NCBI GenBank assembly: GCA_041946865.1
Contig: JBHGBF010000001.1
Coordinates: forward strand, 51,338-115,337
Reading direction: 5' to 3'
Source of the DNA: Acidobacteriota bacterium
GTDB taxonomy: Bacteria; Acidobacteriota; UBA6911; RPQK01
DNA length: 64,000 nt
The position numbers and the translations under genes were made by a program. The notes under the pieces are model-generated. The model did not search any database. It saw only the letters and a program-made list of their open reading frames with translations, and had not been told where the DNA came from. Shown one piece after another: positions 4,602-40,590 of the stretch. The first letter of the stretch is position 1. The number at the start of each line of letters is the position of its first letter.

Positions 4602-5378
4602 ATGTTACCCAATCCGTCATCCAAAGCCGAGGCCTACGAAGCCCAGAGCCGAGCCGATCGTGATCAGGTCATCCTGGAGCATCTCCCCCGCGTCAGGTAC
4701 ATCGCCCAGAGAATTGCTGCACGGCTCCCCCGGGGGGTCCAGCTTGATGACCTGGTCAGCTCAGGAATACTCGGACTCCTCGACGCCTACGAGAAGTTCG
4801 ACCCTGAAAAGGGCGTCAGTTTCCGAACGTACGCCAGCCTCCGGATAAAAGGGGCGATACTGGACAGCCTGCGTGGACTCGACTGGGCCCCTCGAGAGCT
4901 GAGAAGCAGGAGCCGTGAGATTGAACAGGCTTACGCGCGCCTGGAACAGAAGCTGAGTCGCGCGGCCACGGACGAGGAAGTGGCCGCCGAGCTGGAGATC
5001 GACCTCAAGACCTTCCATACGCTGCTTGAACGGCTCAACGGTTTGTCTGTCGGCCACTTCAGCAGCGTAGAGGGTGATCCCAGCGCCGTCGACGCCAACA
5101 ACAACGCCTTCTGGTACTCCCCGGTTTCTCCCGGAGACTCTCCCTTCGAGAGTGTCAGCAAGGCGGAACTCAGGAGACTGCTGGCGGGCATCATCGAGCA
5201 ATTGCCCAGACGCGAGCAGTTGCTGCTCAGCCTCTACTACAAAGAGGAACTGACCATGAAGGAAATCGGGCCGATTCTGGGCGTCAAGGAATCCCGTGTG
5301 TCCCAGCTTCATACCCGCGCGGTGCTCAGAATTCGTGCCAGGCTGCAATCGATCCTGAAACGGAAGCATGATTTATGA
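4602..5378 (+). CDS. fliA: RNA polymerase sigma factor FliA (sigma28)
   Basis: 258 aa. Sigma70 region 2 (DLVSSGILGLLDAYEKFDPEKGVSFRTYASLRIKGAILD) and region 4 HTH (LTMKEIGPILGVKESRVSQLHTRAV). Position after flhG. Confidence 0.9.
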   Translation: MLPNPSSKAEAYEAQSRADRDQVILEHLPRVRYIAQRIAARLPRGVQLDDLVSSGILGLLDAYEKFDPEKGVSFRTYASLRIKGAILDSLRGLDWAPRELRSRSREIEQAYARLEQKLSRAATDEEVAAELEIDLKTFHTLLERLNGLSVGHFSSVEGDPSAVDANNNAFWYSPVSPGDSPFESVSKAELRRLLAGIIEQLPRREQLLLSLYYKEELTMKEIGPILGVKESRVSQLHTRAVLRIRARLQSILKRKHDL

Positions 5379-8144: not shown

Positions 8145-8153
8145 GAGGTCGCG

Positions 8154-12580: not shown

Positions 12581-12607
12581 TAAAGTTTCGCGAGGATCTG
12601 CCGATGA
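12581..12607 (+). promoter_or_regulatory. Sigma28 (FliA) class-III promoter for flgM operon: TAAAGTTT-N11-GCCGATGA
   Basis: ctaaagttt cgcgaggatct gccgatga. -35 TAAAGTTT (8/8) and -10 GCCGATGA (7/8 to GCCGATAA) with an 11-nt spacer, ~45 nt upstream of the flgM ATG. Confidence 0.6.
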
Positions 12608-14969: not shown

Positions 14970-15857
14970 ATGAGAATATCGGAAAACAGCATGGTCCAGG
15001 ACTTCCTCCGGAACCTGGAAAACACACGCCAGCGCTGGCTGCGCTATAACCAGGAGATAAGCACCGGCAAGCGGCTCCATCGTCCTTCGGACAATCCGGC
15101 TGAAAGCGCCCGGGTCCTGCGGATCAGGGACGAGGTCTCACGGGCCAATCAGTATTTTCGAAACATTACCGCCGCCCGGGCCCGGTTGGGAGCAACCGAC
15201 TCCGCCCTGAACACCCTGAGGAACAGCATTCTGTCGATCGCCGACAGAGTGGCCTTTGCCCTGAACGGAACGACCGACGAACAGGGACGCCGGGCCATAG
15301 CAGGCGATCTCCGCGGGACACTGGACGCCCTCTACCAGACGGCGTCGACCACGGTGGACGGATACTACATTTTCTCAGGCAGTCTGATCGACACGGCGCC
15401 TCTTGTGGTGTCGGGTGGTTCGTATTCCTACCAGGGGGACGACCTGGCCTTGGAGATTGAGGTCATGGACGGCGAGGCGGTGAGGACCAACGTGTCGGGC
15501 CGAGAAGTGTTCGCCGAGCCGGCCTCGGATCTGCTTAATTCGCTGGCCGCCCTCATTGAGCAGCTCGAATCGGGTGATCTGGAGGCGGCGCGGGGTCCCC
15601 TGCAGAAGGTCCAGGACGCGGGCAGAGTAATTGACACCGCCCGTTTCAAGGTGGGTCATAGCATCAAGCGTCTCGAGAACGCCCAATTTCGATTGGAAGA
15701 CCGGCTTTTTCAGTTGACTTCGGAGATCTCCGGGCTGGAGGATGCTAATCTGGCAGAGTCGATTTCGAGGATGGTTCAGGCGGAAACGGCTCTGCGGGCC
15801 GCGGTCGGCGCCGGTTCACGCCTGCGCCAGCCGAACCTGTTCGACATGCTGGGATGA
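14970..15857 (+). CDS. flgL: Flagellar hook-associated protein 3 FlgL
   Basis: MRISENSMVQDFLRNLENTRQRWLRYNQEISTGKRLHRPSDNPAESARVLRIRDE is a flagellin-N-like FlgL start. An in-frame TTG at 14955 is the alternative start. Confidence 0.85.
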   Translation: MRISENSMVQDFLRNLENTRQRWLRYNQEISTGKRLHRPSDNPAESARVLRIRDEVSRANQYFRNITAARARLGATDSALNTLRNSILSIADRVAFALNGTTDEQGRRAIAGDLRGTLDALYQTASTTVDGYYIFSGSLIDTAPLVVSGGSYSYQGDDLALEIEVMDGEAVRTNVSGREVFAEPASDLLNSLAALIEQLESGDLEAARGPLQKVQDAGRVIDTARFKVGHSIKRLENAQFRLEDRLFQLTSEISGLEDANLAESISRMVQAETALRAAVGAGSRLRQPNLFDMLG

Positions 15858-15871
15858 GAGGATCGCAAGCC

Positions 15872-16303
15872 ATGTCCAGAGAGGTCGCCACCGGACGTTT
15901 CGGCAATGTCCGGTATGAAGACCGTGACGTGATCAGGATGGTAGCGGGCATGCCTGGGTTCGAATCTCTCAGGCAGTTTCTGCTCATTGACAGCACGGAG
16001 TATGAGCCGGTCAAGTTCCTGCAGTCCCTGGAGGAACCACGCATCTCTTTCCCGCTCATCGACCCGCGGCTGGTCCGAAGCGATTACCGGGTGTCGCTCG
16101 ATGCCGCCCAGCAGGAGAGCCTCGGATTGGACCATCCCGGGGAGGGACTGGTCTACTCCATTCTGACGCTGGGTGACAACCCCGCGGAGGTGACAGCGAA
16201 TCTGTTTGCTCCGGTGGTGATCAACCTCGCGACGATGAAGGCCGCACAGATCATCTTGTTTGAGAGCGAATACTCGGTCGAGGAGCCCGTGCTGGGAGGC
16301 TAA
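15872..16303 (+). CDS. fliW: Flagellar assembly factor FliW (CsrA antagonist)
   Basis: [31 protein letters not shown]...FLLID aligns to the FliW N-terminus (MIIDTKYHGQMDVKEQDIIVFPNGLPGFE). An upstream in-frame ATG at 15854 is also possible. Confidence 0.85.
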
Positions 16304-17760
16304 TGCTCGTTTTCACCCGAAAGCCCGGCGAGAGTCTGATGGTCGGTGACGCCGTCGAGATCAGGATCTTGTCCGTTGGCCACGATCAGGTTCGGATAGG
16401 GATCAGCGCCCCGCGAGAGGTCCCGGTCCACCGCCGGGAAATCTACGACTCCATCACGCGCCAGAACCGCCTGGCCTCCAGTTCGGCGACTCCTCCCAGA
16501 GAACTGCTGGAAAGACTCAAGAGGAGTTAAGCCCTTCCGGCCGGATCCCGTGACCCATTCCGTAACGCTTGTTGCCCGGATGATCGACTCTTCGCGAGTG
16601 GCGCCGAGCGTGATCACGAATCCGGAACGCTTGGTGTGGTCGGTGACTGCCGGTGCGGCGTTCCCCGGCGCCAGTAACAGCTCGCAGCGATGGATCCAGG
16701 AAAAAGCTGCCAGCTGCCGGGGATCGGGAAGGCGCAAGATCTGCCCGATACGCGGAAAGAAGTACCGGATTGCCACTGCCTTTTCGGCGCGCGGCTGGAT
16801 CTCCCACGGCTCGACCCGGTTGCCGAGCGCCAGGCGGATGGCAATGCCGAGCATGTCCACTCCGGTCGCCAAGGGAATCTGATCGGTGGCAAACCAGCCG
16901 CCGGACAGGCGCGCCGCCATCTCGATGACCTTGGGACCCTGCGCTGTCAAGACCATGTCTCCTTTGGCTGTCCCCCAGTTGATCCCCAGCACGCGAGCCG
17001 CCTTTTCCGCCAAGGCAACAACCTTCTGCCGGGGAGAGGGCCCGAGAACGCTGGGCATTGTTCCGCCGTTCTCCACGATGAAAGGAGAGAAACGCTCCAA
17101 GTACTCGTAGTTGCGGTCGCTGAATCCGGGCGTGGACGCGAGGGCGCCCAAGAATATCGATTCGGTGCTGATCTGCGGTCCGGCGAGATACTCCTCGACC
17201 ATGAGCCGCCCGGAAGGCGAAAACGCCCGGGAATGCCGGATAGCCCACTCCAGGTTCAGGCCGCGTGTGATCCGGAGAACACCTCGGGCGCCGCGGCTGT
17301 CGACCGGTTTGAGCACGACCGGAAGCCCCCATTCGTGAATGGCCGACACCAGATCGGACACGCAGTTGACGGGCTTGAAGCGGGGAATCGGGATGCCGGC
17401 CCTCAGGAAGTGTTCCTTCATCGCCAGCTTGTCGGTTGCCAGCCTGGCGGTCTCCCAGGAAGGACCGGGCAGGTCCAGAGCCTGCGCCACTGCTGCGACA
17501 GTCCTGGGCACATCGGCAGCCACGCAGAGAATTCCGTCAAGCCGCCGGCGCTTGGAAAATTCGCGCGCCGCCTGCAGGTGGCCCTGCTCATCGTAGGTAT
17601 CGAGCACGCAGGCATGGTCGGCAAGCTTCAGACCTGGCGCCTGGGGATTGCCATCACTCACCACCACGTAGAGGCCCATCTCTTTGGCGCGGCGGATGCC
17701 TGGCACAGCCTCAATCCCCCCACTTACGATCCATAGCGTCTTGGGCTTGCGTGCGGTCAT
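16300..17760 (-). CDS. ATP-grasp domain enzyme, terminal gene of the glycosylation operon; 3' ~230 nt runs antisense across csrA
   Basis: Start [15 protein letters not shown] at 17760 (ATGA overlap with the upstream gene). ATP-grasp fold features ([35 protein letters not shown]). No in-frame stop until 16300. Confidence 0.6.
16303..16530 (+). CDS. csrA: Carbon storage regulator CsrA
   Basis: [48 protein letters not shown] is a near-canonical CsrA. The TAATG junction overlaps the fliW stop. Confidence 0.9.
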
Positions 17761-19013: not shown

Positions 19014-19030
19014 TAGAAACCTCCGTTGAC

Positions 19031-23736: not shown

Positions 23737-23752
23737 CAGTTCCCTCTTCCTG

Positions 23753-27653: not shown

Positions 27654-27676
27654 CCTGTTCGCTTGGAAACCTCCGG

Positions 27677-29602
27677 CTAAATCCAGGCCTGCCGTGGGCC
27701 CCCTTGCTGTCCCTGCAAAGCGCGAATCGCCTGGTTCAGCAACGGGAGAAACCGGCGCAGGTTCCTGGAGACTTCCAGATAGAACTGGTGTGATTGACGG
27801 CTGGTCTCCGAGTCCGAACCATCCGTCTCCTGGTTGCTCAGGATCCCGTAAATGGTCGAAAGCACGTAATGAAGCGGTTGCTGGTACTCCTTTGAGCGTT
27901 TCAGTGAACGGTCCACGGCGCTGAGCTGGCGGAGAAGGCTCGAAACGTTGCAGGGCTTTTGGTGCTCGACATGTTCGACCAGAACGGAGCTGAGACGGGC
28001 AGCCTTAGTACACTGTCCAGCCAGCCGATTCAGACGCCGCTCGACGTCCTTGAGGAAGTTCACGAGTCCTTCAATGTTGAAGTGATGTCCTGCGAAGAGG
28101 GTTTGCTCCGCTTCCGTGATCCTCGCGGAAATGTCATTGACACAATGCCGGGAGAGTGCCTCCTTCAATGAAAGGAGGAGCGTTCCTTTGATCCGTGCGC
28201 CCCCTTCCGTTGCATCAATGACGGTCCGTTCAGGGCCGATCGCCCGGATCACGCTCTCAAACCAATGCAGAAAAGATAGGAGTTGCCGGTCCGTCAGCAC
28301 CGGATTCCCGTCGATACCCTCAACCCAGGCCTGGTGCCGGCCCGACCAGACGCGCCAGTCCTTCTCGTCGGGATCACTTTCCCCCGACGCCTGTCCGTCA
28401 GTCCATCGGCGGGGGATCTTGTAACGGAAATCTTTCCCGTGGGTCCCGCGCGCGTGGCTGAGCCCCCCTGTGTACGCCAGGTCTTGCCCGATCAGAATGA
28501 TGGGATCACAGCCGAAGCGGTAGGCCAGAGAGAGACACACGTTGGCCACCGAGGGCCCGATCTTCACCAGTCCGACCGCCGTGCTGCTGAAGCGCTCCAG
28601 CCAGAGATTGCCCTCATTGATCAGCATCAGCGCCTTTCGACCCTGATACTCTTCCGCTACCCGGTAATGAACGGCTGGATCGAAAACAAGGACGGGCTCC
28701 CTGACGGTGAGGCCCCGAAAATGCGACTCGTAGTTGGCCTCGTTTCCATCGAGAGTGACGATGAAATCAGGAGCGATCGACTTCTCAGCGAGAAGCCGGG
28801 AAGTCGTTCCGGTGGCGATGATAACCGCCTTGCCTTTGGCCTGGTGCAGCAAATCCACGTTCCTGCTCAGGGAAGGGCCGGCCGAGACGATAATGGCTGG
28901 CAGACCCGCAAAGCAGCCGAAGATCGCACCCACCGGCGCCGCTTCGGCGAGGCGTGGCAGATTCCTGAGCAAGTTGGTCTGCCAGAGCCAGGCTGCGCTC
29001 AGCACCGTCGCCCGGTCTACCAGCAGGCTGTTCAATTCGCGGCTGATCTCCGTCGAAAAAGCCTGGAATTCACCGGCCAGAAGCCTGGTATAAACCGGAA
29101 GCTTGAGATACCGGATGTTTTTCCACCGGCTGCCGTGAACCACGTATTGTTCTTTGAAAGAATCCCAGTCACGGCACAGGACGACGCGCGGATCGGCCAG
29201 GGCACGTTGAGCCACTGGAAGGGCACGGGCCTCCGCCAGGATCTCGTCATCGGGTTCAACGACAAACACTACGTTCCCGGTCCCAGCCTTCCTCAGCAAC
29301 GCCTCGAGGTGGTAGCCTGACCCCAGCCCGAAGAGCACCAGCAGTTCCTTCTCGCCGAAACTCTGGCTCGACGCCCACTGCGATGCTTCCTCTTGGGGAT
29401 CGTAGCTGCTGTTCAGGAAGACCGACTGACCGCCACGGCTGACTCTTAGTACCGGGTCACCATTCCGAGCGCTGACAACTTTGCATGTCCCCGCAAGCAT
29501 CTCAGTTTGTCCCTTTAGCGAATTCGGCCGACCAGCTGTCAAGCAGCGGCCGCAGCTCGTAGCAGACAATGTCGCCGGCCAGGCCATAGTCCTGATGCTC
29601 AA
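27677..29602 (-). CDS. maf: Motility accessory factor (Maf/DUF115) flagellin nonulosonate glycosyltransferase-like protein
   Basis: 641 aa. DUF115/MAF_flag10-like core (GLPAIIVSAGPSLSRNVDLL...AVIIATGT...PDFIVTLDGNEANYE...ILIGQDLAYTGG). Adjacent to pse genes and flagellins. N-terminal ~35 aa may not be translated. Confidence 0.6.
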   Translation of the reverse strand: MSIRTMAWPATLSATSCGRCLTAGRPNSLKGQTEMLAGTCKVVSARNGDPVLRVSRGGQSVFLNSSYDPQEEASQWASSQSFGEKELLVLFGLGSGYHLEALLRKAGTGNVVFVVEPDDEILAEARALPVAQRALADPRVVLCRDWDSFKEQYVVHGSRWKNIRYLKLPVYTRLLAGEFQAFSTEISRELNSLLVDRATVLSAAWLWQTNLLRNLPRLAEAAPVGAIFGCFAGLPAIIVSAGPSLSRNVDLLHQAKGKAVIIATGTTSRLLAEKSIAPDFIVTLDGNEANYESHFRGLTVREPVLVFDPAVHYRVAEEYQGRKALMLINEGNLWLERFSSTAVGLVKIGPSVANVCLSLAYRFGCDPIILIGQDLAYTGGLSHARGTHGKDFRYKIPRRWTDGQASGESDPDEKDWRVWSGRHQAWVEGIDGNPVLTDRQLLSFLHWFESVIRAIGPERTVIDATEGGARIKGTLLLSLKEALSRHCVNDISARITEAEQTLFAGHHFNIEGLVNFLKDVERRLNRLAGQCTKAARLSSVLVEHVEHQKPCNVSSLLRQLSAVDRSLKRSKEYQQPLHYVLSTIYGILSNQETDGSDSETSRQSHQFYLEVSRNLRRFLPLLNQAIRALQGQQGGPRQAWI

Positions 29603-29891
29603 GCGCCTCGACCAGAGGCTTCAAGGTCAGGGGCAACGCGGAGAGATCCAGCGACAATCCCTTTTCAGCCTGCACGGGATGGGTCAGCTGGATGGCCTCT
29701 GACACGGTTCCCAGACCTTCGAGGAGTCGCTTCAGCAGTGCGATTCCTTCATCGAATTGCCCCAACTGGAAGTGGGTGTGAACTTCTACACACGCCCGAC
29801 TCAGCTCCTGGTTGTAAACCTGCGCCTCCGAGATCGCCTGGAGCATCAGTTCTGTATCGTTCTGATTTCCCATCGCCATTGCCCTTCGCAA
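29502..29891 (-). CDS. Hypothetical protein, first ORF of the glycosylation operon (overlaps maf 5' end by ~100 nt in another frame)
   Basis: 129 aa helical ORF with no recognised motif. Coding status uncertain. Confidence 0.35.
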   Translation of the reverse strand: MRRAMAMGNQNDTELMLQAISEAQVYNQELSRACVEVHTHFQLGQFDEGIALLKRLLEGLGTVSEAIQLTHPVQAEKGLSLDLSALPLTLKPLVEALEHQDYGLAGDIVCYELRPLLDSWSAEFAKGTN

Positions 29892-30010
29892 GCCGCGTGC
29901 CAGCTTTACGGCGGACGCTGGTAACCGCGCACTGCCGCCATAAAATCTTCGGAATTAAACATTTGTCGCGGCTCTTTAGGACAGGTGGGAGCTTTGGCTC
30001 GCAATGACAG

Positions 30011-30040
30011 ATTCTTGACGCTTTCGCTGGAGTTCTTGAC
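30011..30040. promoter_or_regulatory. Direct repeat TTCTTGACG x2 (21-nt spacing) in the divergent promoter region between glycosylation operon and Fe-ADH/NeuB operon
   Basis: Reads attcttgacgctttcgctggagttcttgacgatttcatgac. Repeat starts are two helical turns apart. Contains TTGACG -35-like hexamers. Confidence 0.3.
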
Positions 30041-30148
30041 GATTTCATGACCCGACGTGCCTTTAACCGCTTGTGTCTGAGGTGGCCTCCTGGCGGCCAA
30101 TCCTGTGCGGAGGGATTCTAAGCGGGGTGGGGGCGTTGCCTCGGCAAT

Positions 30149-30166
30149 TAGGGCAAGGATTTTGCA
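30149..30166 (+). promoter_or_regulatory. Possible sigma54-type promoter (gGGCAaG-N4-TTGCA) immediately upstream of Fe-ADH gene
   Basis: Reads agggcaaggattttgcat. GG and GC are spaced 12 nt apart as in the TGGCACG-N4-TTGCW consensus. The -24 hexamer is imperfect. Coordinates approximate (+/-2). Confidence 0.3.
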
Positions 30167-30180
30167 TCGTACCATCTCGC

Positions 30181-31356
30181 ATGAGTACACACGACCCTTT
30201 TCGCTCGAATCTTCCCGGCATGCCGGCGTTGTACGTTCCCACCCGGATATACGCGGGGGCCGGGGCATCCGAGGGTCTGACAGCGATCCTTCGCTCCCTG
30301 GGCCGGAGCAGAGTTCTTCTGCTGTCCGGAAAACATTTCTCTCGAAACCTGGCGGAGCAGATCCAGGAGCGCCTGAAGAGTCCGGGCATATCGTGCGAGT
30401 TGCTGTCAGGGATTGATTCGGAGCCGGATTCGGACAGCCTCGACCGAATGTCGAGCGAGGTGAAGGCCCGGTGTCCTGACGCGATGATCGCCGTAGGCGG
30501 GGGCAGTGTCATGGACGCGGGAAAATACCTCGCCGCCTGGACGGCCAACGGCGGCGGGTGTGTCGATTACGAGAAGGGCCGTTCCTTCGATCGACCCGGC
30601 GTCCCTTTGATTACGGTCCCCACCGTGGCGGGAAGCGGCAGTGAAGTGACGCCTTACAGTGTCATCAACTCGAGCGCCACGGGAAGAAAGTTCACTCTGC
30701 GCAGCGCGCGACTCTGGCCCTTCGCCGCCTGGGTAGACGCCGGGCTGACCGCCGGGGCGGGGGCAAACGTGACTATCCCGCCCGCTCTGGATGCCTGGAC
30801 ACATTGCCTTGAATGCCGGCTTAGCCGGGAGTCGACCGGTTTTTCCGACCTGTTCGCGGGTGAGGGTATGGCGCTGATTCAGCAGTGGCTCGGGAAGACG
30901 CTCCATGACGGCGCCGACCTCGAAGGCCGGAGTGCTCTCTCCCGGGCGTCGATCCTCGGAGGGATCGCCATCTCCCACGTCCGTACCGGCATGGTCCACA
31001 CCCTTTCGGTGGCGCTGGCGCCGCATGTAAAGCTGGCGCATGGCTGGTTGAACGCGATCATCCTTCCCCATGTTTTGAACTTCAATAAGGGATGCTACGG
31101 GATGAAGCTGCGGAGAATCGCGGCGGACTTGTCGGGCCAGCCGGCCGGGGACGACGACCGTGCCATTGCGGCCATCCGGGAATGGCTCGACACACTGCAG
31201 GTGCCCAGAGATCTGGCCTCGCATCGGCCACCCGGCCTTTCAGTCGTGAGGGATCGAATCCTCGAGGATCAAGGCCTGCCCGCGGTCAGCATGAGGCCGT
31301 TCACAGCCGGAGACGTCGAAGAGATTGTCAATTCCGTTCTTGGCAGGAGCAGATGA
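30181..31356 (+). CDS. Iron-containing (group III) alcohol dehydrogenase family protein
   Basis: Start MSTHDPFRS. Fe-ADH motifs (AVGGGSVMDAGKYLA, PTVAGSGSEVTPYSVIN) and metal-binding His region HVRTGMVHTLS. The upstream part of the listed ORF (30073) is probably untranslated. Confidence 0.75.
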   Translation: MSTHDPFRSNLPGMPALYVPTRIYAGAGASEGLTAILRSLGRSRVLLLSGKHFSRNLAEQIQERLKSPGISCELLSGIDSEPDSDSLDRMSSEVKARCPDAMIAVGGGSVMDAGKYLAAWTANGGGCVDYEKGRSFDRPGVPLITVPTVAGSGSEVTPYSVINSSATGRKFTLRSARLWPFAAWVDAGLTAGAGANVTIPPALDAWTHCLECRLSRESTGFSDLFAGEGMALIQQWLGKTLHDGADLEGRSALSRASILGGIAISHVRTGMVHTLSVALAPHVKLAHGWLNAIILPHVLNFNKGCYGMKLRRIAADLSGQPAGDDDRAIAAIREWLDTLQVPRDLASHRPPGLSVVRDRILEDQGLPAVSMRPFTAGDVEEIVNSVLGRSR

Positions 31357-31898
31357 ACACAATCGTCAAACCATCAGGAGGCACTGGGCGAACCGATCAG
31401 AAAGGACGCAGGCTGAGACCGTTCATCGGCTCGGCCCGTGAACTCGCCGCCGGACTTGGGCGCTACTGCGACTGGTATTCCGGAGTGCCGGACAGCATGT
31501 TTCGCCGGGTCCTGCCTTCTCTTGTCCCGTACTATCGCGCGGCGAGGGAAAACCATGCTCTGGGCATGGCATTTGGTGCGCGCCTGGGGGGCAGCCGCCC
31601 CTGCGTGCTGATGCAGAACAGCGGGCTGGGGCTGTCTTTGGACGTGGCTTTGGGGCTGTTCGGGCTCTACCGCCTCGGTGCCCTCGTCGTGGTGGCTCAG
31701 CGTGGCGAACTCGAATGGGAAGAGCCTCAGCATAAAGATTGGGGCGAAAAGACAGTCCCCGTATTGAGGGCCATGGATATACCCGTGTATGACTTCGAAC
31801 AGGGTAGACTTGACGCCCTGGCTCTGGCTGCCGGGACTGCGTTTGAGGATGACCGGATAGCGGTGCTTCTGATTCACAGGGGAAACATCGATGAATAG
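31353..31898 (+). CDS. TPP-dependent decarboxylase, alpha (N-terminal PYR-domain) subunit; sulfopyruvate/phosphonopyruvate decarboxylase-like
   Basis: Start MNTIVKPSGG, overlapping the Fe-ADH stop (ATGA). 181 aa. Has the split-decarboxylase architecture (ALGMAFGARLGGSRPCVLMQNSGLGLSLDVALGLFG). Confidence 0.6.
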   Translation: MNTIVKPSGGTGRTDQKGRRLRPFIGSARELAAGLGRYCDWYSGVPDSMFRRVLPSLVPYYRAARENHALGMAFGARLGGSRPCVLMQNSGLGLSLDVALGLFGLYRLGALVVVAQRGELEWEEPQHKDWGEKTVPVLRAMDIPVYDFEQGRLDALALAAGTAFEDDRIAVLLIHRGNIDE

Positions 31899-32367
31899 GA
31901 TGGAAGCAATCCGCTACATCCTGGCCAGGCACCCCGGTGCAGCAGTGATTTTCTGTAACGGGCTGAACTCGAGAGAAGCGAGTCATCTAGCCCACCGGCC
32001 AGGGAACTTCTATCTGTTGCACGGGATGGGCGAAGCCTTGTCAGTGGGATTGGGCCTTCGCCAATCCCGGCCGGATCTCGAGGTCGTGGTTGTTGACGGA
32101 GACGGGAATGCGGCCATGGGGCTGGGTGCATGGACGAGCCTTCCCTGCGACGGCGTCCATTACTACGTGCTGAAGAACTCGTGCTACGAGACCACTGGCG
32201 GCCAGGCCGTCCCCGATCTTCCTTTCAGTCACGATGCGGTCCAGGTCATGGTGGTCGACCCGGGGATCACTGGGACCCCTAATCCACCACCCGCAGCACA
32301 GATCAAACTTGAGTTCCAACAATGGCTGGCCGATAGAGGCCGGCAGGAGAAGGGAATCAATGAGTGA
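31891..32367 (+). CDS. TPP-dependent decarboxylase, beta (TPP-binding) subunit
   Basis: 158 aa. TPP-binding motif GDGNAAMGLG and LHGMGEALSVGLG. 8-nt overlap with the alpha subunit. Confidence 0.6.
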   Translation: MNRMEAIRYILARHPGAAVIFCNGLNSREASHLAHRPGNFYLLHGMGEALSVGLGLRQSRPDLEVVVVDGDGNAAMGLGAWTSLPCDGVHYYVLKNSCYETTGGQAVPDLPFSHDAVQVMVVDPGITGTPNPPPAAQIKLEFQQWLADRGRQEKGINE

Positions 32368-33508
32368 AAAGCGTTTCACGGTCGGCCACGTGGAGATCGG
32401 GGAAGGACTTCCCTGTCTGTTGGTGGCAGAGATCGGCCTGAATCATAACGGCAGCCTGTCGCTGGCGCATCAACACATCAGTGCCGCCGCCCTCGCGGGC
32501 GCCAGCATGGTGAAGTTCCAGAAAAGGTGTCCTTCCGAACTGGCCACCGCGCCGTTTCTGGACGCCCCCTTCCCCAAATCACCGCTCTTCGGCAGGACCC
32601 AGCGGGAAGTACGCCAGCGACTGGAGTTTTCGGAGGTGCAACTGAAAGAATTGCAGGAGCATGCTGCCGAGCTGGGGCTGATGTTCTCCATGTCGGTCTT
32701 CGACATGCCGAGTCTTCAGGCGGCACTGAACCTGAAGCTTCCAGTCCTTAAAATCGCCAGCCACAGTATAACCAACGCTCCTTTGCTGGAAGCGGCTGCC
32801 CGGTCGGGTGTGCCGATCATTCTGAGCATGGGGGCTGCCACCTGGGAAGAAAGGGACCAGGCCTTCGAAGTACTCAGGGATTGCGAGTTGGCTCTTCTCC
32901 ATTGTGTCAGCGCTTATCCTTGCCCAGACTCGCTGGTGAAGCTGGACACGATCGCGGAGCTGAAACGGCGGTACGGAAGGGTGACCGGCTACAGCGGTCA
33001 TGAGACCGGCGTCGATGTGTCTGTCGCGGCGGCACTCCTGGGTGCGTCGCTGATCGAGCGACACTTCACGCTGAACCGGTCCATGGTTGGGCTGGACCAC
33101 GGAATGAGCGTGGAACCGGCCGAATTCGCCGAGATGGCACGCCGGATCAGGCGAGTCGAGAAAGTCCGCGGAGTGTCGGAGGGCATCGTTTATGAAGAGC
33201 TGGCCTCGCGGAGGAACTACCACGTCTCGATCTGTACGCGTCGCGCGCTTTCGAGCGGACGCGTGCTGCGGCCTTCGGATCTCGTTTGCAAGCAGCCTCT
33301 GATCGACGACCGACAGTATTTCACAGGGCTCGAAATCAAGCACGTGGTCGGTCGGCGGCTCACCCGGAATCTGCCTGCCGATACGCCAATCCCCCGGGAC
33401 GCAGTCGCTGATGGGGATGAGATGGCGCCCCTTGACCGAATCGGCGCATACCCCGTCACGGCAATGCGGGCCAATGGAGAAGGGCTGCGGGCTCGGGGCG
33501 CCAAGTAA
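32360..33508 (+). CDS. neuB: NeuB-family nonulosonic acid synthase with C-terminal SAF domain (second paralog in window)
   Basis: Start MSEKRFTVGHVEIGEGLPCLLVAEIGLNHNGSLSLAHQHISAAALAGASMVKFQKR, the NeuB signature. Also KIASHSITN and GYSGHETG. C-terminal ~70 aa is SAF-like. 8-nt overlap with the upstream gene. Confidence 0.75.
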   Translation: MSEKRFTVGHVEIGEGLPCLLVAEIGLNHNGSLSLAHQHISAAALAGASMVKFQKRCPSELATAPFLDAPFPKSPLFGRTQREVRQRLEFSEVQLKELQEHAAELGLMFSMSVFDMPSLQAALNLKLPVLKIASHSITNAPLLEAAARSGVPIILSMGAATWEERDQAFEVLRDCELALLHCVSAYPCPDSLVKLDTIAELKRRYGRVTGYSGHETGVDVSVAAALLGASLIERHFTLNRSMVGLDHGMSVEPAEFAEMARRIRRVEKVRGVSEGIVYEELASRRNYHVSICTRRALSSGRVLRPSDLVCKQPLIDDRQYFTGLEIKHVVGRRLTRNLPADTPIPRDAVADGDEMAPLDRIGAYPVTAMRANGEGLRARGAK

Positions 33509-33873: not shown

Positions 33874-34332
33874 TCAACGCATCGATAGTGTGGACTGGTG
33901 AACGCTGAGGGTGTCTGGATAAGCCGAGGGGACTCTCGGGGCTTTCTGGGTCATCCGATAGGTCTGACGCGCTTCTTCCCAGCCGGAAAGGAGTGTCGAG
34001 AGCAGTCGCACGACTTCCTCGACTGGTTGTGGGTCCTGCTGTGCGTTGGCCTGCGAGATGCGCCGCAGCATATAGGTATAGAGCCGATCAAGCGAGGCTG
34101 CAATCTCTCCGCCCTTCTCAAAATTCAGCGAAGTCTGAAGCTCCGAGATCATAGCGATCGCCTTGTTGATTCGGGCCACGCGTTTTTCAATGTCACCACT
34201 GGCGAAATAAGCGCTTGCCTGACCCAGTTCGCGAATTGCGCCTTTGTAAAGGATCAGGATCAGGTCGAAGGGATCGGCCGTATGGACCTCCATTTCCTGG
34301 TAGCGCAGCGCGTAGTTGTTTGTCAGACCCAT
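33874..34332 (-). CDS. fliS: Flagellin-specific export chaperone FliS
   Basis: NYALRYQEMEVHTADPFDLILILYKGAIRELGQA...RVARINKAIAMISELQTSLNFEKGGEIAASLDRLYTYM is a typical FliS. Confidence 0.9.
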   Translation of the reverse strand: MGLTNNYALRYQEMEVHTADPFDLILILYKGAIRELGQASAYFASGDIEKRVARINKAIAMISELQTSLNFEKGGEIAASLDRLYTYMLRRISQANAQQDPQPVEEVVRLLSTLLSGWEEARQTYRMTQKAPRVPSAYPDTLSVHQSTLSMR

Positions 34333-36304: not shown

Positions 36305-36639
36305 GCGATCGTGTCAAGGACTCGGCCGTTAAGTTGTTCCACCAACTCACGAAGTTTGCGAAGCTCCTCAGGAGGGATTTCACGCAGCACTTCTCCGGTC
36401 TCGCGGTCGACTACCTGGACGTACAAGCGGTTGGTTTTCTCATCTATCACGACCTGGAGAAGCTCCTTCAACTGAACCGGCTCGACCGGCTTGCGTGCCT
36501 GTTTCGCCCGTTCCGGCATGCCCGGCCAGGCCTTAGGTTCGTCCTCCTGCCTGGATCGCTCCGGCGCGCTCAGACCGACAACACGCCGGGCATCGACCGT
36601 CGAGAACCGTTCAATGTCAAGCTTTACGGGTTCAGACAT
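36301..36639 (-). CDS. flaG: Flagellar protein FlaG
   Basis: 112 aa. C-terminal QVVIDEKTNRLYVQVVDRETGEVLREIPPEELRKL matches the FlaG family. ATGA-coupled to fliD. Confidence 0.8.
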   Translation of the reverse strand: MSEPVKLDIERFSTVDARRVVGLSAPERSRQEDEPKAWPGMPERAKQARKPVEPVQLKELLQVVIDEKTNRLYVQVVDRETGEVLREIPPEELRKLRELVEQLNGRVLDTIA

Positions 36640-36777
36640 GTTCGTATCTCTCGAAATCTTTGAGGGGTCTCAGGGGAAGGATGAAGGGGTCCCAGCCGGC
36701 ATCCGCCCGTTCCCGGCTCGATCCGGCTGGTCGTCACCTTCGTCCTTCCTCCCTCATTCCTCGTGGCTAAGCTGTCG

Positions 36778-37641
36778 CTAACGCAGGAGCGACAGGATCC
36801 CCTGCGGAACGGAATTGGCCTGTGCCATGGCAGCCGTACCAACCTGCGACAGGATCTGGAATTTGGTCAGGTTGGCGATTTCGGCAGCCATGTCTGCGTC
36901 CCGGATCTGAGACTCGGCTGCCGTCAGGTTCTGGATCTGAGACTGCATGATCGAGACGGAATTCTCCAGGCGGTTCATCCGCGCACCCAGCCGGCCGCGA
37001 CGAGTGGCGACCTCATCGATCGCCGCCTCGACGTCGGCAAGCATCTTGGCGGCGGAAGCGGCCCCTGAGGGGTTGATGTTCACCGTGATAGACGAACCGC
37101 TGCTGGTGACGCCGTCGGATAGACCCAGGTCACTGACGTTCAGTGCGCTGGTGTCGAAGCTGATCTGGGCGTTGGCCGGACTCAGGTTCTGAGTGTCTCC
37201 GACGAAGATGTCCCGGGCGCCGGACGAAAAGACCGCGACACCGTTGTACTGCGTGGCCGTGCCGATCCGGTCAATTTCCTGGTAAATCTGAGCCAGCTCC
37301 GTCTCGATCGCCGACTCGCTGCTGCTGTTCGTCGACGATGCGGCCTGAGTCAGAAGCGAGGCGGCACGAGTGAGCAGATTGGACACCTGCCCCAGGGCGC
37401 TGTCAGCGACCTGGATGAAGCCGATGCCGTCGTTGGCATTCCTGACGGACTGCTGCAAAGTCCGGATCTGGCCCCTCAAGCCGTCAGCGATGGCCAGGCC
37501 GGCTGCGTCATCTCCCCCGCGATTGACGCGAGAGCCCGACGACAAACGAAACAGTGTCTTCTGCAGGCTCAGCTGGTTCGCGCTGGATTGCTGTTGCGCC
37601 ACCAGGCTCGATAAGTTGTTGAGAACGCTAAATGCACCCAT
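36778..37641 (-). CDS. fliC: Flagellin (FliC/FlaA paralog 1)
   Basis: 287 aa. N-terminal MGAFSVLNNLSSLVAQQQSSANQLSLQKTLFRLSSGSRVNRGGDDAAGLAIADGLRGQIRTLQQSVRNANDGI and C-terminal QILSQVGTAAMAQANSVPQGILSLLR. S/T-rich variable middle. Confidence 0.95.
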   Translation of the reverse strand: MGAFSVLNNLSSLVAQQQSSANQLSLQKTLFRLSSGSRVNRGGDDAAGLAIADGLRGQIRTLQQSVRNANDGIGFIQVADSALGQVSNLLTRAASLLTQAASSTNSSSESAIETELAQIYQEIDRIGTATQYNGVAVFSSGARDIFVGDTQNLSPANAQISFDTSALNVSDLGLSDGVTSSGSSITVNINPSGAASAAKMLADVEAAIDEVATRRGRLGARMNRLENSVSIMQSQIQNLTAAESQIRDADMAAEIANLTKFQILSQVGTAAMAQANSVPQGILSLLR

Positions 37642-37680
37642 TTTCTTCCTCCTTGAAAGACTCTGGCTTCCTTGCCTGAA
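37642..37680 (-). promoter_or_regulatory. Flagellin-1 5'UTR: GGCAAGGAAGCC hairpin plus GGA-containing SD (CsrA-site architecture)
   Basis: mRNA sense reads CAGGCAAGGAAGCCAGAGUCUUUCAAGGAGGAAGAAA-AUG. Identical GGCAAGGAAGCC element in all three flagellin leaders. Confidence 0.5.
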
Positions 37681-37782
37681 TCGTGTCGACCCGACAATGG
37701 TGATTTACGATCCATGATCCAGGTGCCCCAGCCCCAAGCCCAAGCCGATCATCAATCACCAGCGTCAGGCCAGGGCCCGCGC

Positions 37783-38640
37783 CTACCCGAGCAGAGACAA
37801 GATGCTCTGAGGCACGGAATTGGCCTGGGCCATGGCCGCCGTCCCTACTTGTGAGAGAATCTGGAACTTGGTCAGGTTGGCGATCTCCTCCGCCATGTCG
37901 GCGTCCCGGATCTGTGACTCTGCCGCCGTCAGATTCTGGATCTGGGCCTGCATAATCGAGACGGAATTCTCCAACCGGTTCATACGGGCACCCAGCCGGC
38001 CGCGCCTGGTGGCGACATCGTCGATGGCCGCCTCGACCTCGGTCAGCATGGCGGTGGCGGTCTGCGAGGCGCTGATGGCCACGGTAATGCTGGTTCCGCT
38101 TCCCCCGATTCCGGCCGAGATGCTCAGATTGGCCACACTAAGAGTGCTGGTCGTAAAGCTGATCTCGGCGTTTGCCGCCGTGAGGTTCTGCGTGTCCCCG
38201 ACGAAAATGTTCATCGCCGTGTCGGAGAAGACAGAAACTCCGTTGTACTTGGTGGCCGAACCGATCCGGTTGATCTCGGAGTAGATCTGCCCGAGCTCTG
38301 TCTCGATGGCCGCTTCGCTGCTGCTGTTCGTTGACGAAGCCGCCTGCGTCAGGAGCGAAGCGGCGCGCGTGAGCAGGTTCGAGACCTGGCCCAAGGCGCT
38401 GTCCGCCACCTGGATGAAGCCGATACCGTCGTTGGCATTCCTGACGGATTGCTGCAGAGTGCGAATCTGACCCTTCAACCCGTCGGCGATGGCCAGCCCA
38501 GCCGCATCGTCTCCGCCGCGATTGACCCGAGAGCCTGAAGACAACCGGAACAACGTTTTCTGCAGGCTCAGTTGGTTGGTGCTGGATTGCTGCTGGGCAA
38601 CCAGGCTCGCCAGATTGTTGAGAACGCTAAATCCTCCCAT
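37783..38640 (-). CDS. fliC: Flagellin (paralog 2)
   Basis: 285 aa. Termini nearly identical to paralog 1. Divergent central domain. Confidence 0.95.
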   Translation of the reverse strand: MGGFSVLNNLASLVAQQQSSTNQLSLQKTLFRLSSGSRVNRGGDDAAGLAIADGLKGQIRTLQQSVRNANDGIGFIQVADSALGQVSNLLTRAASLLTQAASSTNSSSEAAIETELGQIYSEINRIGSATKYNGVSVFSDTAMNIFVGDTQNLTAANAEISFTTSTLSVANLSISAGIGGSGTSITVAISASQTATAMLTEVEAAIDDVATRRGRLGARMNRLENSVSIMQAQIQNLTAAESQIRDADMAEEIANLTKFQILSQVGTAAMAQANSVPQSILSLLG

Positions 38641-38680
38641 AGTTTTTTCCTCCTTGAATGAGATAGGCTTCCTTGCCTTC
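38641..38680 (-). promoter_or_regulatory. Flagellin-2 5'UTR: GGCAAGGAAGCC hairpin plus GGA-containing SD
   Basis: mRNA sense reads GAAGGCAAGGAAGCCUAUCUCAUUCAAGGAGGAAAAAACU-AUG. Confidence 0.5.
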
Positions 38681-38714
38681 TATCAGCACGTTAGTCAGAC
38701 GATTCTGCTAACGG

Positions 38715-39572
38715 TTACTGCCCGAGCAACGACAGGATCCCCTGGGGCACGCTGTTGGCTTGCGCCATCGCGGCAGTGCCCACCTGGGAAAGGATCTGGA
38801 ATTTCGTCAGGTTGGCGATCTCGGCCGCCATGTCGGCGTCTCGAATCTGCGATTCCGCCGCAGTGAGGTTCTGAATCTGCGCCTGCATGATCGAGACCGA
38901 ATTCTCGAGGCGGTTCATACGGGCACCGAGGCTTCCGCGCGTCTCTGCCACTTTATCGATGGCGGCTTCGACCTCGACCAGTTGGGCCGCGGGCGAGGCG
39001 GCGCTGAGGCTGACGGCGATGGTCGAACCCGAGCCTGAGACTCCGCTGGCCACGTTCAAGGCGCTCATGCTCAGAACTCCGGTCGTGAAGCTGATTTGAG
39101 CCGTCGAGGCCGCAAGGTTCTGAGTGTCCCCCAGAAAGATGGTCTGTGCCGTGGTCGAAAACACCGCCACCCCGTTGTACTTCGTGGCTGAGCCGATCCG
39201 GTCAATTTCCTGGTAGATCTGGCCCAGTTCCGTCTCAATCGCGGTGGTGCTGCTGCTGTTGGTCGACGAAGCCGCCTGTGTAAGCAGCGAGGCGGCCCGG
39301 GTCAGGAGATTGGAAACCTGCCCCAACGCACTGTCGGCCACCTGAATGAAGCCGATGCCGTCGTTGGCGTTTCTGACCGACTGCTGAAGCGTGCCAATCT
39401 GTCCTTTCAATCCGTCGGCAATGGCCAGCCCCGCCGCGTCGTCCCCACCGCGGTTGACGCGAGAACCGGAGGAGAGCCGGAACAACGTCTTCTGCAGGTT
39501 CAACTGATTGGTGCTCGACTGCTGCTGAGCCACGATACTGGCGAGATTGTTGAGAACGCTGAATCCACCCAT
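38715..39572 (-). CDS. fliC: Flagellin (paralog 3); start taken at the internal Met preceded by AGGGAGGAAAAGACA
   Basis: Begins MGGFSVLNNLASIVAQQQSSTNQL. The listed ORF has a 17-aa N-terminal extension (MKPRARKPEVIFREEKT) that covers the Shine-Dalgarno sequence and is rejected. Confidence 0.9.
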   Translation of the reverse strand: MGGFSVLNNLASIVAQQQSSTNQLNLQKTLFRLSSGSRVNRGGDDAAGLAIADGLKGQIGTLQQSVRNANDGIGFIQVADSALGQVSNLLTRAASLLTQAASSTNSSSTTAIETELGQIYQEIDRIGSATKYNGVAVFSTTAQTIFLGDTQNLAASTAQISFTTGVLSMSALNVASGVSGSGSTIAVSLSAASPAAQLVEVEAAIDKVAETRGSLGARMNRLENSVSIMQAQIQNLTAAESQIRDADMAAEIANLTKFQILSQVGTAAMAQANSVPQGILSLLGQ

Positions 39573-39615
39573 TGTCTTTTCCTCCCTGAAGATCACCTCA
39601 GGCTTCCTTGCCCTC
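39573..39615 (-). promoter_or_regulatory. Flagellin-3 5'UTR: GGCAAGGAAGCC hairpin plus GGA-containing SD
   Basis: mRNA sense reads GAGGGCAAGGAAGCCUGAGGUGAUCUUCAGGGAGGAAAAGACA-AUG. Confidence 0.5.
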
Positions 39616-39648
39616 GGTTTCACTGCCGGTGAATTTCACACACCTTTC

Positions 39649-39656
39649 TTATCGGC
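39649..39656 (-). promoter_or_regulatory. Sigma28-type -10 element GCCGATAA upstream of flagellin 3 (-35 not convincing)
   Basis: Minus-strand CACCGGCCGATAAGAAAGG is a perfect match to the sigma28 -10 consensus, ~75 nt upstream of the flagellin-3 ATG. The upstream -35 (ACAGAATC) is poor. Confidence 0.4.
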
Positions 39657-39775
39657 CGGTGTCCCAGGATTCTGTAGAGGAAAATGCGCAGCAACGGGAA
39701 AAACACCCTCCCTGCTTGTGCTTACTTCTCGCAAAACTCTTCCAAAAGAGAATCACGAGTCGTTGAGAAATCGGC

Positions 39776-39802
39776 TAAATATTCCCACCGATCCTCCGAT
39801 AT
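39776..39802 (+). promoter_or_regulatory. Sigma28 promoter for response-regulator/cheX operon: TAAATATT-N11-TCCGATAT
   Basis: Reads ctaaatatt cccaccgatcc tccgatat. -35 is 6/8 and -10 is 7/8 relative to TAAAGTTT-N11-GCCGATAA. Also fits the Bacillus-type TAAA-N15-GCCGATAT. ~30 nt upstream of the ATG at 39835. Confidence 0.55.
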
Positions 39803-39834
39803 AGGAAAAGGGTATGTATGCGCAGGGAGGGTGT

Positions 39835-40590
39835 ATGAAAGTCCTTACGGTTGATGACAGTCGCATGATTCGCACTCTGGTCAGAAAGTACCTGTCATCT
39901 TTCCCCCTAAACATCATTGAAGCTGCGGATGGAAAGCAAGCGCTCGAGCAGGTGAGGGCGGAGCGGCCTGATCTCGTCATCCTGGACATCAACATGCCGG
40001 TCATGGACGGCGCGGCGGTCCTCAGAGAACTGCGACGCGATCCGGAGTTGAAGGAAGTCCGTGTCCTGATGCTGACAGCAGAATCCTCCGAAAGAATGGT
40101 GCTGGAGGTGATCAAACTGGGCATCTCCGACTACATCGTCAAGCCCTTTCAGCAGGAACTCCTTCTGAGGAAAGTCGCTAAAATCCTGCAGCTCTCACCG
40201 ACCGGAAGGCCGCAGGTCGCATCCCCGGTGACAAACACGCGGCGCGTACTGGTGGTCGACGACAATGAGAGCATCCTGCTGGTGGCCCGGAGGTTTCTCA
40301 CCGGAATTGCTGAGGTGGTGACGACAACCCGGCCGGAAAAAGCCCTTCAGCTCGCCTGTCAGCACGCGCCTCAGGTGGTTTTGCTGGATCTGAAAGCGGA
40401 CGGCCTCAGCGTGCTGCGCACTCTACAGAAGGAATCCGGGCTGTCCTCTTCCCGCTTTGTGGGGCTGGCCACCACGTCGATGGCGGAACAGGCCGACAAG
40501 GCCCGAATGGCGGGCTTTTCCGACGTTCTCTTTAAGCCGTTCGACAGGGAATCCCTGACTCGAGTGGTCATAGGCGAGTCAGCCGCATGA
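39835..40590 (+). CDS. Response regulator with two tandem receiver (CheY-like) domains, no output domain
   Basis: Start MKVLTVDDS preceded by AGGGAGGG. REC1 DLVILDINMP...KP; REC2 RVLVVDDNE...VVLLDLKADG...KP. An upstream ATG at 39814 lacks an RBS. Confidence 0.8.
   Translation: MKVLTVDDSRMIRTLVRKYLSSFPLNIIEAADGKQALEQVRAERPDLVILDINMPVMDGAAVLRELRRDPELKEVRVLMLTAESSERMVLEVIKLGISDYIVKPFQQELLLRKVAKILQLSPTGRPQVASPVTNTRRVLVVDDNESILLVARRFLTGIAEVVTTTRPEKALQLACQHAPQVVLLDLKADGLSVLRTLQKESGLSSSRFVGLATTSMAEQADKARMAGFSDVLFKPFDRESLTRVVIGESAA

Follow-up and report, generated by a model that had tools for sequence, protein, structure and literature searches.

The window analysed here, a stretch of 64,000 nucleotides (nt) from an Acidobacteriota bacterium, contains three tandem flagellin genes, and each of their leaders carries two GGA motifs, one in the loop of a small hairpin (BS1) and the other in a block that overlaps the Shine-Dalgarno (SD) sequence (BS2). 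By analogy with characterized systems, we consider it likely that each flagellin mRNA possesses a two-site operator for CsrA and belongs to a homeostatic circuit formed by CsrA, FliW and flagellin. The evidence comprises the anatomy of the leaders, the selective conservation of both blocks, their specificity for flagellin leaders, the match to validated CsrA sites and the contact residues present in CsrA and FliW. CsrA binding, translational repression and partner switching are proposed by analogy with Bacillus subtilis, Campylobacter jejuni and Clostridioides difficile. Translational control of the flagellins by FliW and CsrA had been predicted in a sequence-only reading of the same DNA, and the computations presented here support that prediction, with the sites, their conservation, the CsrA N55/FliW Q132 pair and the operon all in its favour.

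The mechanism that we put forward starts from the two sites. BS1 would act as a short, GC-clamped hairpin presenting an AAGGAA hexaloop, and BS2, with the sequence UUCA(A/G)GGAGGAA, includes the SD and would form a weak hairpin in which UUC pairs with GAA and A(A/G)GGAG is exposed. On each cistron a single CsrA dimer would bridge the two GGAs, which are 19-22 nt apart, occlude the SD and block binding of the 30S subunit, and flagellin translation would be off. FliW, originating from the same sigma-28 operon as CsrA, would bind the C-terminal region of CsrA via the N55/Q132 contact, upon which the mRNA would be released. Cytoplasmic flagellin in turn would bind FliW via its conserved D1 helices, such that FliW would be free to antagonise CsrA only during flagellin export. 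Synthesis of the three flagellins would in this way be coupled homeostatically to the assembly of the filament and would follow export capacity.

Anatomy and selective conservation of the leaders

The 12-mer GGCAAGGAAGCC is present in exactly three exact copies in the window, all of them on the minus strand and all in flagellin leaders. The copies start 35 (flaA), 37 (flaB) and 40 nt (flaC) 5' of the ATG and their 3' ends lie 24-29 nt upstream of it. In the minimum free energy (MFE) fold of all three leaders the 12-mer adopts a GGC/GCC stem with an AAGGAA hexaloop. This BS1 hairpin, GGC-AAGGAA-GCC, is located at 39601..39612 in front of flaC (GGA at -35..-33), at 38666..38677 in front of flaB (GGA at -32..-30) and at 37665..37676 in front of flaA (GGA at -30..-28), each on the minus strand, and the three leaders score 48.6, 52.3 and 45 bits, respectively, with the covariance model introduced below. 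A fourth pair lengthens the stem of flaB and flaC; in flaA alone it is continued by a bulged outer helix.

BS2 (TTCA(A/G)GGAGGAA at the DNA level) follows after 7-10 variable nt, and the end of its GGAGG is separated from the ATG by 6-8 nt. It reads UUC-AGGGAG-GAA in flaC (39579..39590, minus strand; TTCAGGGAGGAA) and UUC-AAGGAG-GAA in flaB (38647..38658, minus strand) and flaA (37646..37657, minus strand; TTCAAGGAGGAA in both), and overlaps the SD in every case. The block is able to pair UUC with GAA around an A(A/G)GGAG hexaloop, and this hairpin is seen in the MFE fold of flaA. The ANGGA motifs are thereby paired at -32/-13 in flaA, -34/-15 in flaB and -37/-15 in flaC, with GGA-to-GGA spacings of 19, 19 and 22 nt. 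No other gene in the window exhibits such a paired GGA arrangement together with a hairpin. The identical hairpin with its AAGGAA loop and the GGA-containing SD, which the sequence-only reading had described for all three fliC leaders, were thus recovered, and structure prediction yielded the same stem and loop in every MFE fold. The gap of 12-18 nt that it gave between hairpin and SD motif needs correction: it amounts to 9, 9 and 12 nt up to the CA(A/G)GGAGGAA decamer and to 12-15 nt up to GGAGG.

A degenerate pattern, GCANGGANGC, was found four times in the window compared with 4.3 expected occurrences, a raw count not above chance, and the signal was therefore judged by placement and conservation. 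Two candidates were rejected. The sole match to GGCAAGGAAGCC with one mismatch (8184-8195, GGCATGGAAGCC) corresponds to codons 11-14 of FlgG (G-M-E-A) and is a coding coincidence, and a long-range interaction in the flaC MFE fold, in which the leader pairs with codons 2-5, was dropped, as it is not significant and not seen in relatives. Separately, the flgG leader (8125-8153) carries AAGGATATAGGAGG, a possible single CsrA site at the SD.

Three copies of GGCAAGGAAGCC in front of three tandem paralogs with protein termini that are 91-94% identical could simply be a passive, functionless remnant of a recent event, duplication or gene conversion, in which each leader was copied along with its gene. 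The synonymous sites speak against such an origin. When 103 four-fold degenerate codon positions from the conserved termini were compared, only 23% proved invariant across the three paralogs and pairwise identity was about 26-51%, meaning that these sites are nearly saturated, and outside the BS1 and BS2 blocks the three leaders do not align. At a rate of 23%, the probability of 12 consecutive invariant neutral positions is ~3e-8. Furthermore, the blocks are also kept in orthologous leaders of acidobacterial relatives. We therefore regard a passive remnant as next to negligible in probability. Judged from this comparison of the paralogs, both leader blocks are under purifying selection and have been held by it, rather than by recent duplication or gene conversion, since they are intact while synonymous sites are nearly saturated. 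As an observation on the genes themselves, termini that are so similar in protein yet diverged at synonymous sites indicate an old duplication with strong protein-level constraint; there is no sign of recent gene conversion among the paralogs, which is unusual for tandem flagellin genes.

Relatives, validated CsrA sites and competing explanations

Relatives were found by flagellin searches of genome and metagenome collections, the best matches having 66-79% identity; these matches assign the window to the Acidobacteriota. Every flagellin leader of the close acidobacterial relatives was included with motif content ignored, which resulted in 13 distinct leaders, three from the window and ten from relatives. 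GGCA.GGA.GCC and TCA.GGAGGA are invariant in all 13 of them. The BS1 loops read AAGGAA, AAGGAU, AUGGAU, AUGGAA or ACGGAC, and the GGA-to-GGA spacing is 19-26 nt over the whole set (21-26 nt in the relatives). The outer, fourth stem pair covaries within the Acidobacteriota (GC 5, AU 2, UA 2, GU 1). The hairpin is also kept in a further close relative (L006), where a longer spacer places it 67 nt from the ATG. Loss of the element from the leaders of close relatives had been named beforehand as the result that would speak against the prediction; alignment reveals its retention in 13/13 leaders and in L006, and the sole exception found, the more distant L042, is taken up below. An additional feature was noted in L002, L003, L004, L005, L007, L039 and L041, which share a conserved 5' stem-loop, CYGGU-ACCNNNGA-ACCRG, without GGA, ~15-45 nt 5' of BS1 and downstream of the sigma-28 promoter. 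In the window it is missing or degenerate in the flaC leader and missing from flaA and flaB; it may be a 5' stabiliser.

A covariance model consisting of hairpin and SD (R1) was built from the acidobacterial leaders. Within the window it detects the three flagellin leaders with 45-52 bits, and the next best match, again FlgG codons 11-14, reaches 10.3 bits. The model was also run over 65 other loci fetched (324 kb). Outside the training set, matches with E<0.1 are all situated directly upstream of flagellin starts, including those of Clostridia, Nitrospinae and Leptospiraceae, with one exception, a weak match of 14.7 bits (L010:6546-6589) that does not adjoin a flagellin gene. A looser scan identified a hairpin with GGA in the loop in 41/65 distinct flagellin leaders, against a background of 20% in random windows and 26% in SD-anchored starts of genes other than flagellin. 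Five further loci have fliW-csrA directly upstream of a flagellin gene, and a GGA hairpin is present in four of these five leaders. Rfam returned no match at the gathering threshold in the whole window, and a permissive search of 36600-39850 gave noise only. Since leaders of flagellin genes from several phyla share this combination of hairpin and SD, for which Rfam has no entry, a new family of cis-regulatory RNAs could be established for it.

Both sites agree with what is established about CsrA targets. The high-affinity target of CsrA/RsmE is a CANGGANG apical hexaloop (PMC4894983), and BS1 (G-C-AAGGAA-G-C) as well as BS2 (U-C-A[A/G]GGAG-G-A) fit this consensus. A distance of 18 nt is cited as optimal for bridging by a CsrA dimer, and C. 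jejuni flaA has 21 nt (PMC4894983); the 19-22 nt in the window are compatible with a single dimer bridging both sites. For the hag leader of B. subtilis the 3' end, CAACATATTCAGGGAGGAACAAAACAATG, was recovered from primer sequences (PMC11542774), and hag BS2, TTCAGGGAGGAA, is identical over 12 nt to BS2 of flaC. The GGA of hag BS1 occupies -39..-37 and the exchange G-38A abolishes CsrA binding (PMC11542774, PMC13443453), while inhibition by CsrA is lost with C-17T, an exchange of the C that closes the BS2 hexaloop (PMC13443453). The bases equivalent to hag G-38 and C-17 are invariant in 13/13 acidobacterial leaders. The earlier proposal that the two GGA sites reproduce the architecture of Bacillus hag is supported by these matches. 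A full-text literature search with CAGGGAGGAA led to unrelated papers only.

These same bases bear on a second explanation, according to which the hairpin is an RNA element independent of CsrA, serving to stabilise the 5' end or stop RNases, as a standby site or enhancer for ribosomes, or as the target of another RNA-binding protein, and the purine-rich SD would be no more than what strong ribosome binding demands in a highly expressed gene. In favour of this view, flagellin is expressed at very high levels, and mRNAs of this class often have a strong SD and a stabilising hairpin at the 5' end; moreover, relatives carry the additional conserved GGA-less 5' stem-loop, and the invariance of the inner BS1 stem leaves little covariation. 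An element of this kind does not explain, however, that the conserved bases are exactly those that hag needs for CsrA control. It is the loop sequence A.GGA. that is conserved across phyla, not pairing alone, and this sequence equals the CANGGANG consensus. On either side of the SD, conservation (UC..GA) exceeds what ribosome binding requires and coincides with hag C-17. In addition, csrA and fliW are themselves members of the same flagellar regulon. On balance, a CsrA-independent function appears unlikely to us.

Several points nevertheless weigh against a CsrA operator. For this organism and its phylum the support is computational throughout. BS1 is a small hairpin of -2.8 to -4.4 kcal/mol, and the folds of the whole leaders do not significantly exceed those of shuffled sequences in stability. 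The inner three stem pairs are invariant within the Acidobacteriota, and covariation is confined to one pair. An anchored alignment of 25 hairpins from several phyla does exhibit compensatory stem changes around a fixed A.GGA. (paired cells 84% vs 54% in shuffles, covariation score 0.69 vs 0.16), with a set picked by hairpin scan and therefore biased and supportive only. L042 (100-760 and 2400-2494), at 51% identity, possesses a BS1-like hairpin, GGCATGACGCC, that lacks GGA despite the presence of fliW-csrA directly upstream of the flagellin gene; the missing GGA may represent a genuine loss, a sequencing error or the use of an alternative site. Heterologous GGA-recognising CsrAs do not all repress hag (PMC13443453), so that a match to the motif is no guarantee of repression. 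Finally, a degenerate -10-like sequence in front of flaB, GCTGATAG, ends 2 nt before BS1, and a transcript starting from there might lack an intact BS1.

The three operators are not identical. The spacing is 19 or 22 nt, BS2 contains AAGGAG or AGGGAG, and the outer helix is restricted to flaA. The flaA mRNA of C. jejuni has been shown to act as a CsrA sponge (PMC4894983). By analogy, the three leaders, which belong to abundant mRNAs, could together titrate CsrA as its principal RNA sponge, and de-repression could differ in degree between the paralogs; this is a tentative idea that we hold to be rather doubtful. If it were true, the level of flagellin mRNA and FliW would jointly set the activity of CsrA on a wider acidobacterial regulon, and a de-repression hierarchy derived from the operator differences would tune the composition of the glycosylated multi-flagellin filament.

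CsrA, FliW and the flagellar gene region

The predicted regulators are encoded within the window. The csrA gene (16303..16530, plus strand) specifies a protein of 75 amino acids (aa) with a C-terminal extension of the FliW-binding type (Pfam CsrA, 1.1e-23, 83.3 bits; NCBIfam equivalog, 86 bits vs a cut-off of 73). It is preceded by fliW (15854..16303, plus strand; Pfam FliW, 2.6e-34), the gene for the predicted protein antagonist of CsrA, whose stop overlaps the csrA start. For fliW a start at 15854, where an ATGA overlaps the flgL stop, is more likely than the one at 15872 assumed before. The sequence-only reading had placed both genes ~22 kb upstream of the flagellins; their identity is confirmed by Pfam and the distance (20-23 kb) is correct, but "upstream" does not apply, as they reside on the opposite strand in convergent orientation.

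CsrA aligns over residues 2-73 with the FliW-bound CsrA from Geobacillus (chain D, PDB 5DMB), with R44 and N55 present. FliW aligns with chain A of the same structure, its residues Q132, N116 and A119 corresponding to Q124, N108 and A111. CsrA N55 and FliW Q124 have been reported to be an invariant contact pair required for the interaction (bioRxiv 10.1101/2020.07.02.184341). The salt bridge between CsrA D41 and FliW K123 is absent here, the positions being taken by P41 and A131; this bridge has been reported to be specific to Bacillales (bioRxiv 10.1101/2020.07.02.184341), and it would not be expected in other orders. Hydrogen-deuterium exchange mass spectrometry in B. subtilis revealed that FliW contacts the D1-N and D1-C helices of flagellin (PMC6070490), and in the matching regions the three paralogs share 91-94% identity.

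A canonical sigma-28 promoter, TAAAGTTT-N11-GCCGATGA (12581..12607, plus strand), precedes the genes flgM-flgN-flgK-flgL-fliW-csrA, and fliW and csrA are therefore predicted to be late (FliA-dependent) genes themselves. Sigma-28 is encoded by fliA (4602..5378, plus strand; NCBIfam FliA/WhiG, 244.7 bits vs a cut-off of 189.6). FlgM scores above its NCBIfam equivalog cut-off and FlgN, FlgK and FlgL match Pfam families. Other flagellar products from the window are FlhA, FlhF, FlhG, FliM and rod and ring proteins.

The flagellin array is on the minus strand and is led by flaC (38715..39572, 285 aa; Pfam Flagellin_N 1.5e-31, Flagellin_C 1.8e-24), followed by flaB (37783..38640, 285 aa) and flaA (36778..37641, 287 aa), both of which also match Flagellin_N and Flagellin_C. 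The trio is succeeded at its 3' side by flaG, fliD and fliS, the last (33874..34332, minus strand; Pfam FliS, 3.3e-37) specifying the flagellin export chaperone, a third partner of cytoplasmic flagellin. For flaC, a start at GTG 39623, where the open reading frame begins, was not borne out; ATG 39572 is preferred because an SD is located 6 nt upstream and because the resulting N-terminus, MGGF, is common to the paralogs. Near-identical termini and divergent centres rich in serine and threonine (S/T) had been ascribed to the paralogs earlier, and quantification agrees: pairwise protein identity is 91-94% for the termini and 49-57% for the centre (aa 140-203), with S+T amounting to 26-33% of the centres vs 19-21% overall. 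Regarding the starts of the genes, flaB opens with ATG GGA GGA (38632-38640) and has two further GGA motifs at codons 2-3, flaC continues with GGT GGA and flaA with GGT GCA. The open reading frame of fliD begins at TTG 36304, and TTGAAGGAGGACACAGTG suggests GTG 36289 as its true start, with AAGGAGGA as an SD overlapping the end of flaG.

The consensus of sigma-28 class promoters is TAAA-N15-GCCGATAA. A sigma-28-type promoter, TACA-N16-GCCGATAA, is predicted for flaC at 39649..39676 (minus strand) from the consensus match, including GCCGATA. Relatives exhibit the same arrangement, i.e. TACA or TAAA, 15-16 nt and then GCCGATA (GTCGATA in L012). In front of flaB and flaA only degenerate -10-like sequences are found, GCTGATAG and GTCGACAC, respectively, and a scan of the array for sigma-70 promoters and intrinsic terminators gave no useful sites. 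We propose that flaC would be transcribed from its sigma-28-type promoter; flaB and flaA would depend on read-through, on weak promoters in front of each, or on a combination of the two. The position of the conserved block just 3' of the weak GCTGATAG and GTCGACAC in flaB and flaA also allows the notion that it acts as DNA, as the operator of a transcription factor or as part of a sigma-28 promoter or initial transcribed region. In flaC and the relatives, however, the block is found 35-60 nt downstream of the -10, at variable distance; the motif is strand-specific and not a true palindrome, and across phyla the stem changes by compensatory pairs with the loop kept, which fits an RNA structure. 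A role at the DNA level is thus highly improbable.

Two further structures in the array were recorded. Just past the flaA stop, 36675-36756 (minus strand) forms a very stable long stem-loop (150-nt fold of -61 kcal/mol, z = -3.9) without a U-tract, the 5' arm of which is GGA-rich (GAGGAAUGAGGGAGGAAGGACGAAGG) yet buried within the stem. Situated between the flagellin array and flaG-fliD-fliS, this structure might protect a 3' end or serve as a terminator of non-canonical type. Another stable stem-loop (z = -2.8), likewise without a U-tract, sits between the stop of flaB and the leader of flaA (37720-37790, minus strand) and is followed by a weak sigma-28-like sequence, TAAA-N13-GTCGACAC; flaA may therefore be a separate transcription unit.

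Between csrA and fliS lies a stretch of ~17 kb (window 16300-33500) that contains a Maf/PseD-like gene and a pathway for nonulosonic acids. On the minus strand it encodes a Maf/PseD-like flagellin-modification protein (27677-29602), a PseB-like dehydratase (26601-27653), a PseC-like aminotransferase (25436-26695), a CMP-sugar cytidylyltransferase (23753-24574) and two polysaccharide pyruvyl transferases (17757-20272). Of two NeuB synthases, one is encoded on the minus strand (24523-25455) and the other on the plus strand (32234-33508). An ATP-grasp ligase, an aldo-keto reductase, a class-III aminotransferase, an iron-containing alcohol dehydrogenase and a fragment of a thiamine pyrophosphate enzyme complete the island. 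The combination of pyruvyl transferases and ATP-grasp ligase suggests an unusual modified nonulosonic acid. Gene context and S/T-rich, divergent centres are consistent with the glycosylated, variable surface regions that the sequence-only reading had suggested for the flagellins.

Comparison with known systems

Control of flagellin by FliW and CsrA is well established in Firmicutes, Campylobacterota and spirochaetes. Acidobacteriota are abundant in soil, few of their members are genetically manipulable and, to our knowledge, almost nothing has been tested regarding their post-transcriptional regulation. Acidobacteria have already been listed among the phyla that encode FliW and may regulate CsrA by it (PMC4682653), and our literature search for FliW-CsrA in Acidobacteria found no treatment beyond this listing. 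What the window adds is a well-supported but ordinary further case of a control circuit already known; specialists would not be surprised by it, and the understanding of the FliW-CsrA system stays unchanged. If the reading as a CsrA operator is true, the ancestral circuit of flagellin, FliW and CsrA homeostasis extends to the Acidobacteriota, and a locus for a glycosylated multi-flagellin filament has retained, by strong selection, a separate operator for each cistron. The core of the operator (CANGGANG hexaloop plus UUCARGGAGGAA) is essentially unchanged from Firmicutes to Acidobacteriota, and this supports flagellin control as the original job of CsrA. In practical terms, the covariance model could be used to annotate flagellin leaders of this type in metagenomes.

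The CANGGANG hairpin is also the unit recognised by CsrA in the CsrB/RsmZ-type small RNA (sRNA) sponges of Gammaproteobacteria. No multi-hairpin sRNA of the CsrB/RsmZ type was found in the window, where Rfam was without matches, and unlike in these systems the predicted antagonist is a protein, FliW. The fliC leader of C. difficile (PMC8523840), with BS1 TGACAAGGATGT and BS2 CTAAGGAGGG, resembles the leaders described here by its combination of an A-AGGA-U loop, as in the acidobacterial relatives, and a site at the SD, these C. difficile sites being predictions themselves (PMC8523840). In contrast to the window, C. difficile has a single fliC.

The 5' untranslated region of C. jejuni flaA (Dugar 2016, PMC4894983) likewise exposes two adjacent ANGGA hexaloops, the second of them over the ribosome-binding site, with a GGA spacing of 21 nt there and 19-22 nt here; the C. 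jejuni gene is sigma-28 dependent, as is predicted here for flaC. C. jejuni flaA has a GGA at codon 2, as does flaB of the window (ATG GGA GGA). Flagellins are glycosylated in C. jejuni and predicted to be so here, with Maf and pseudaminic acid-type genes in the locus. It is a property of C. jejuni that the flaA leader also titrates CsrA and that the mRNA localises to the poles (PMC4894983). Unlike flaC of the window with its sigma-28-type promoter, C. jejuni flaB is sigma-54 dependent.

B. subtilis, for which the Hag-FliW-CsrA partner switch has been described (Yakhnin 2007; Mukherjee 2011, as cited in PMC7652899 and PMC8523840), differs in several respects. It has one hag gene, whereas three flagellin cistrons with an operator each are present here, on the strand opposite csrA and separated from it by the ~17 kb glycosylation island. 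The BS1 stem in the window is GGC/GCC and not that of hag, the D41/K123 bridge is missing, and the organism belongs to another phylum, the Acidobacteriota. On the other hand, both systems share a pair of GGA sites, the first within an upstream hairpin and the second over the SD; the BS1 GGA is found between -30 and -35 in the window, and in hag at -39. They have in common the gene order flgM-flgN-flgK-flgL-fliW-csrA, sigma-28/sigma-D promoters (predicted ones in the window), a short flagellin of about 285-300 aa, and the conserved residues CsrA N55 and FliW Q124.

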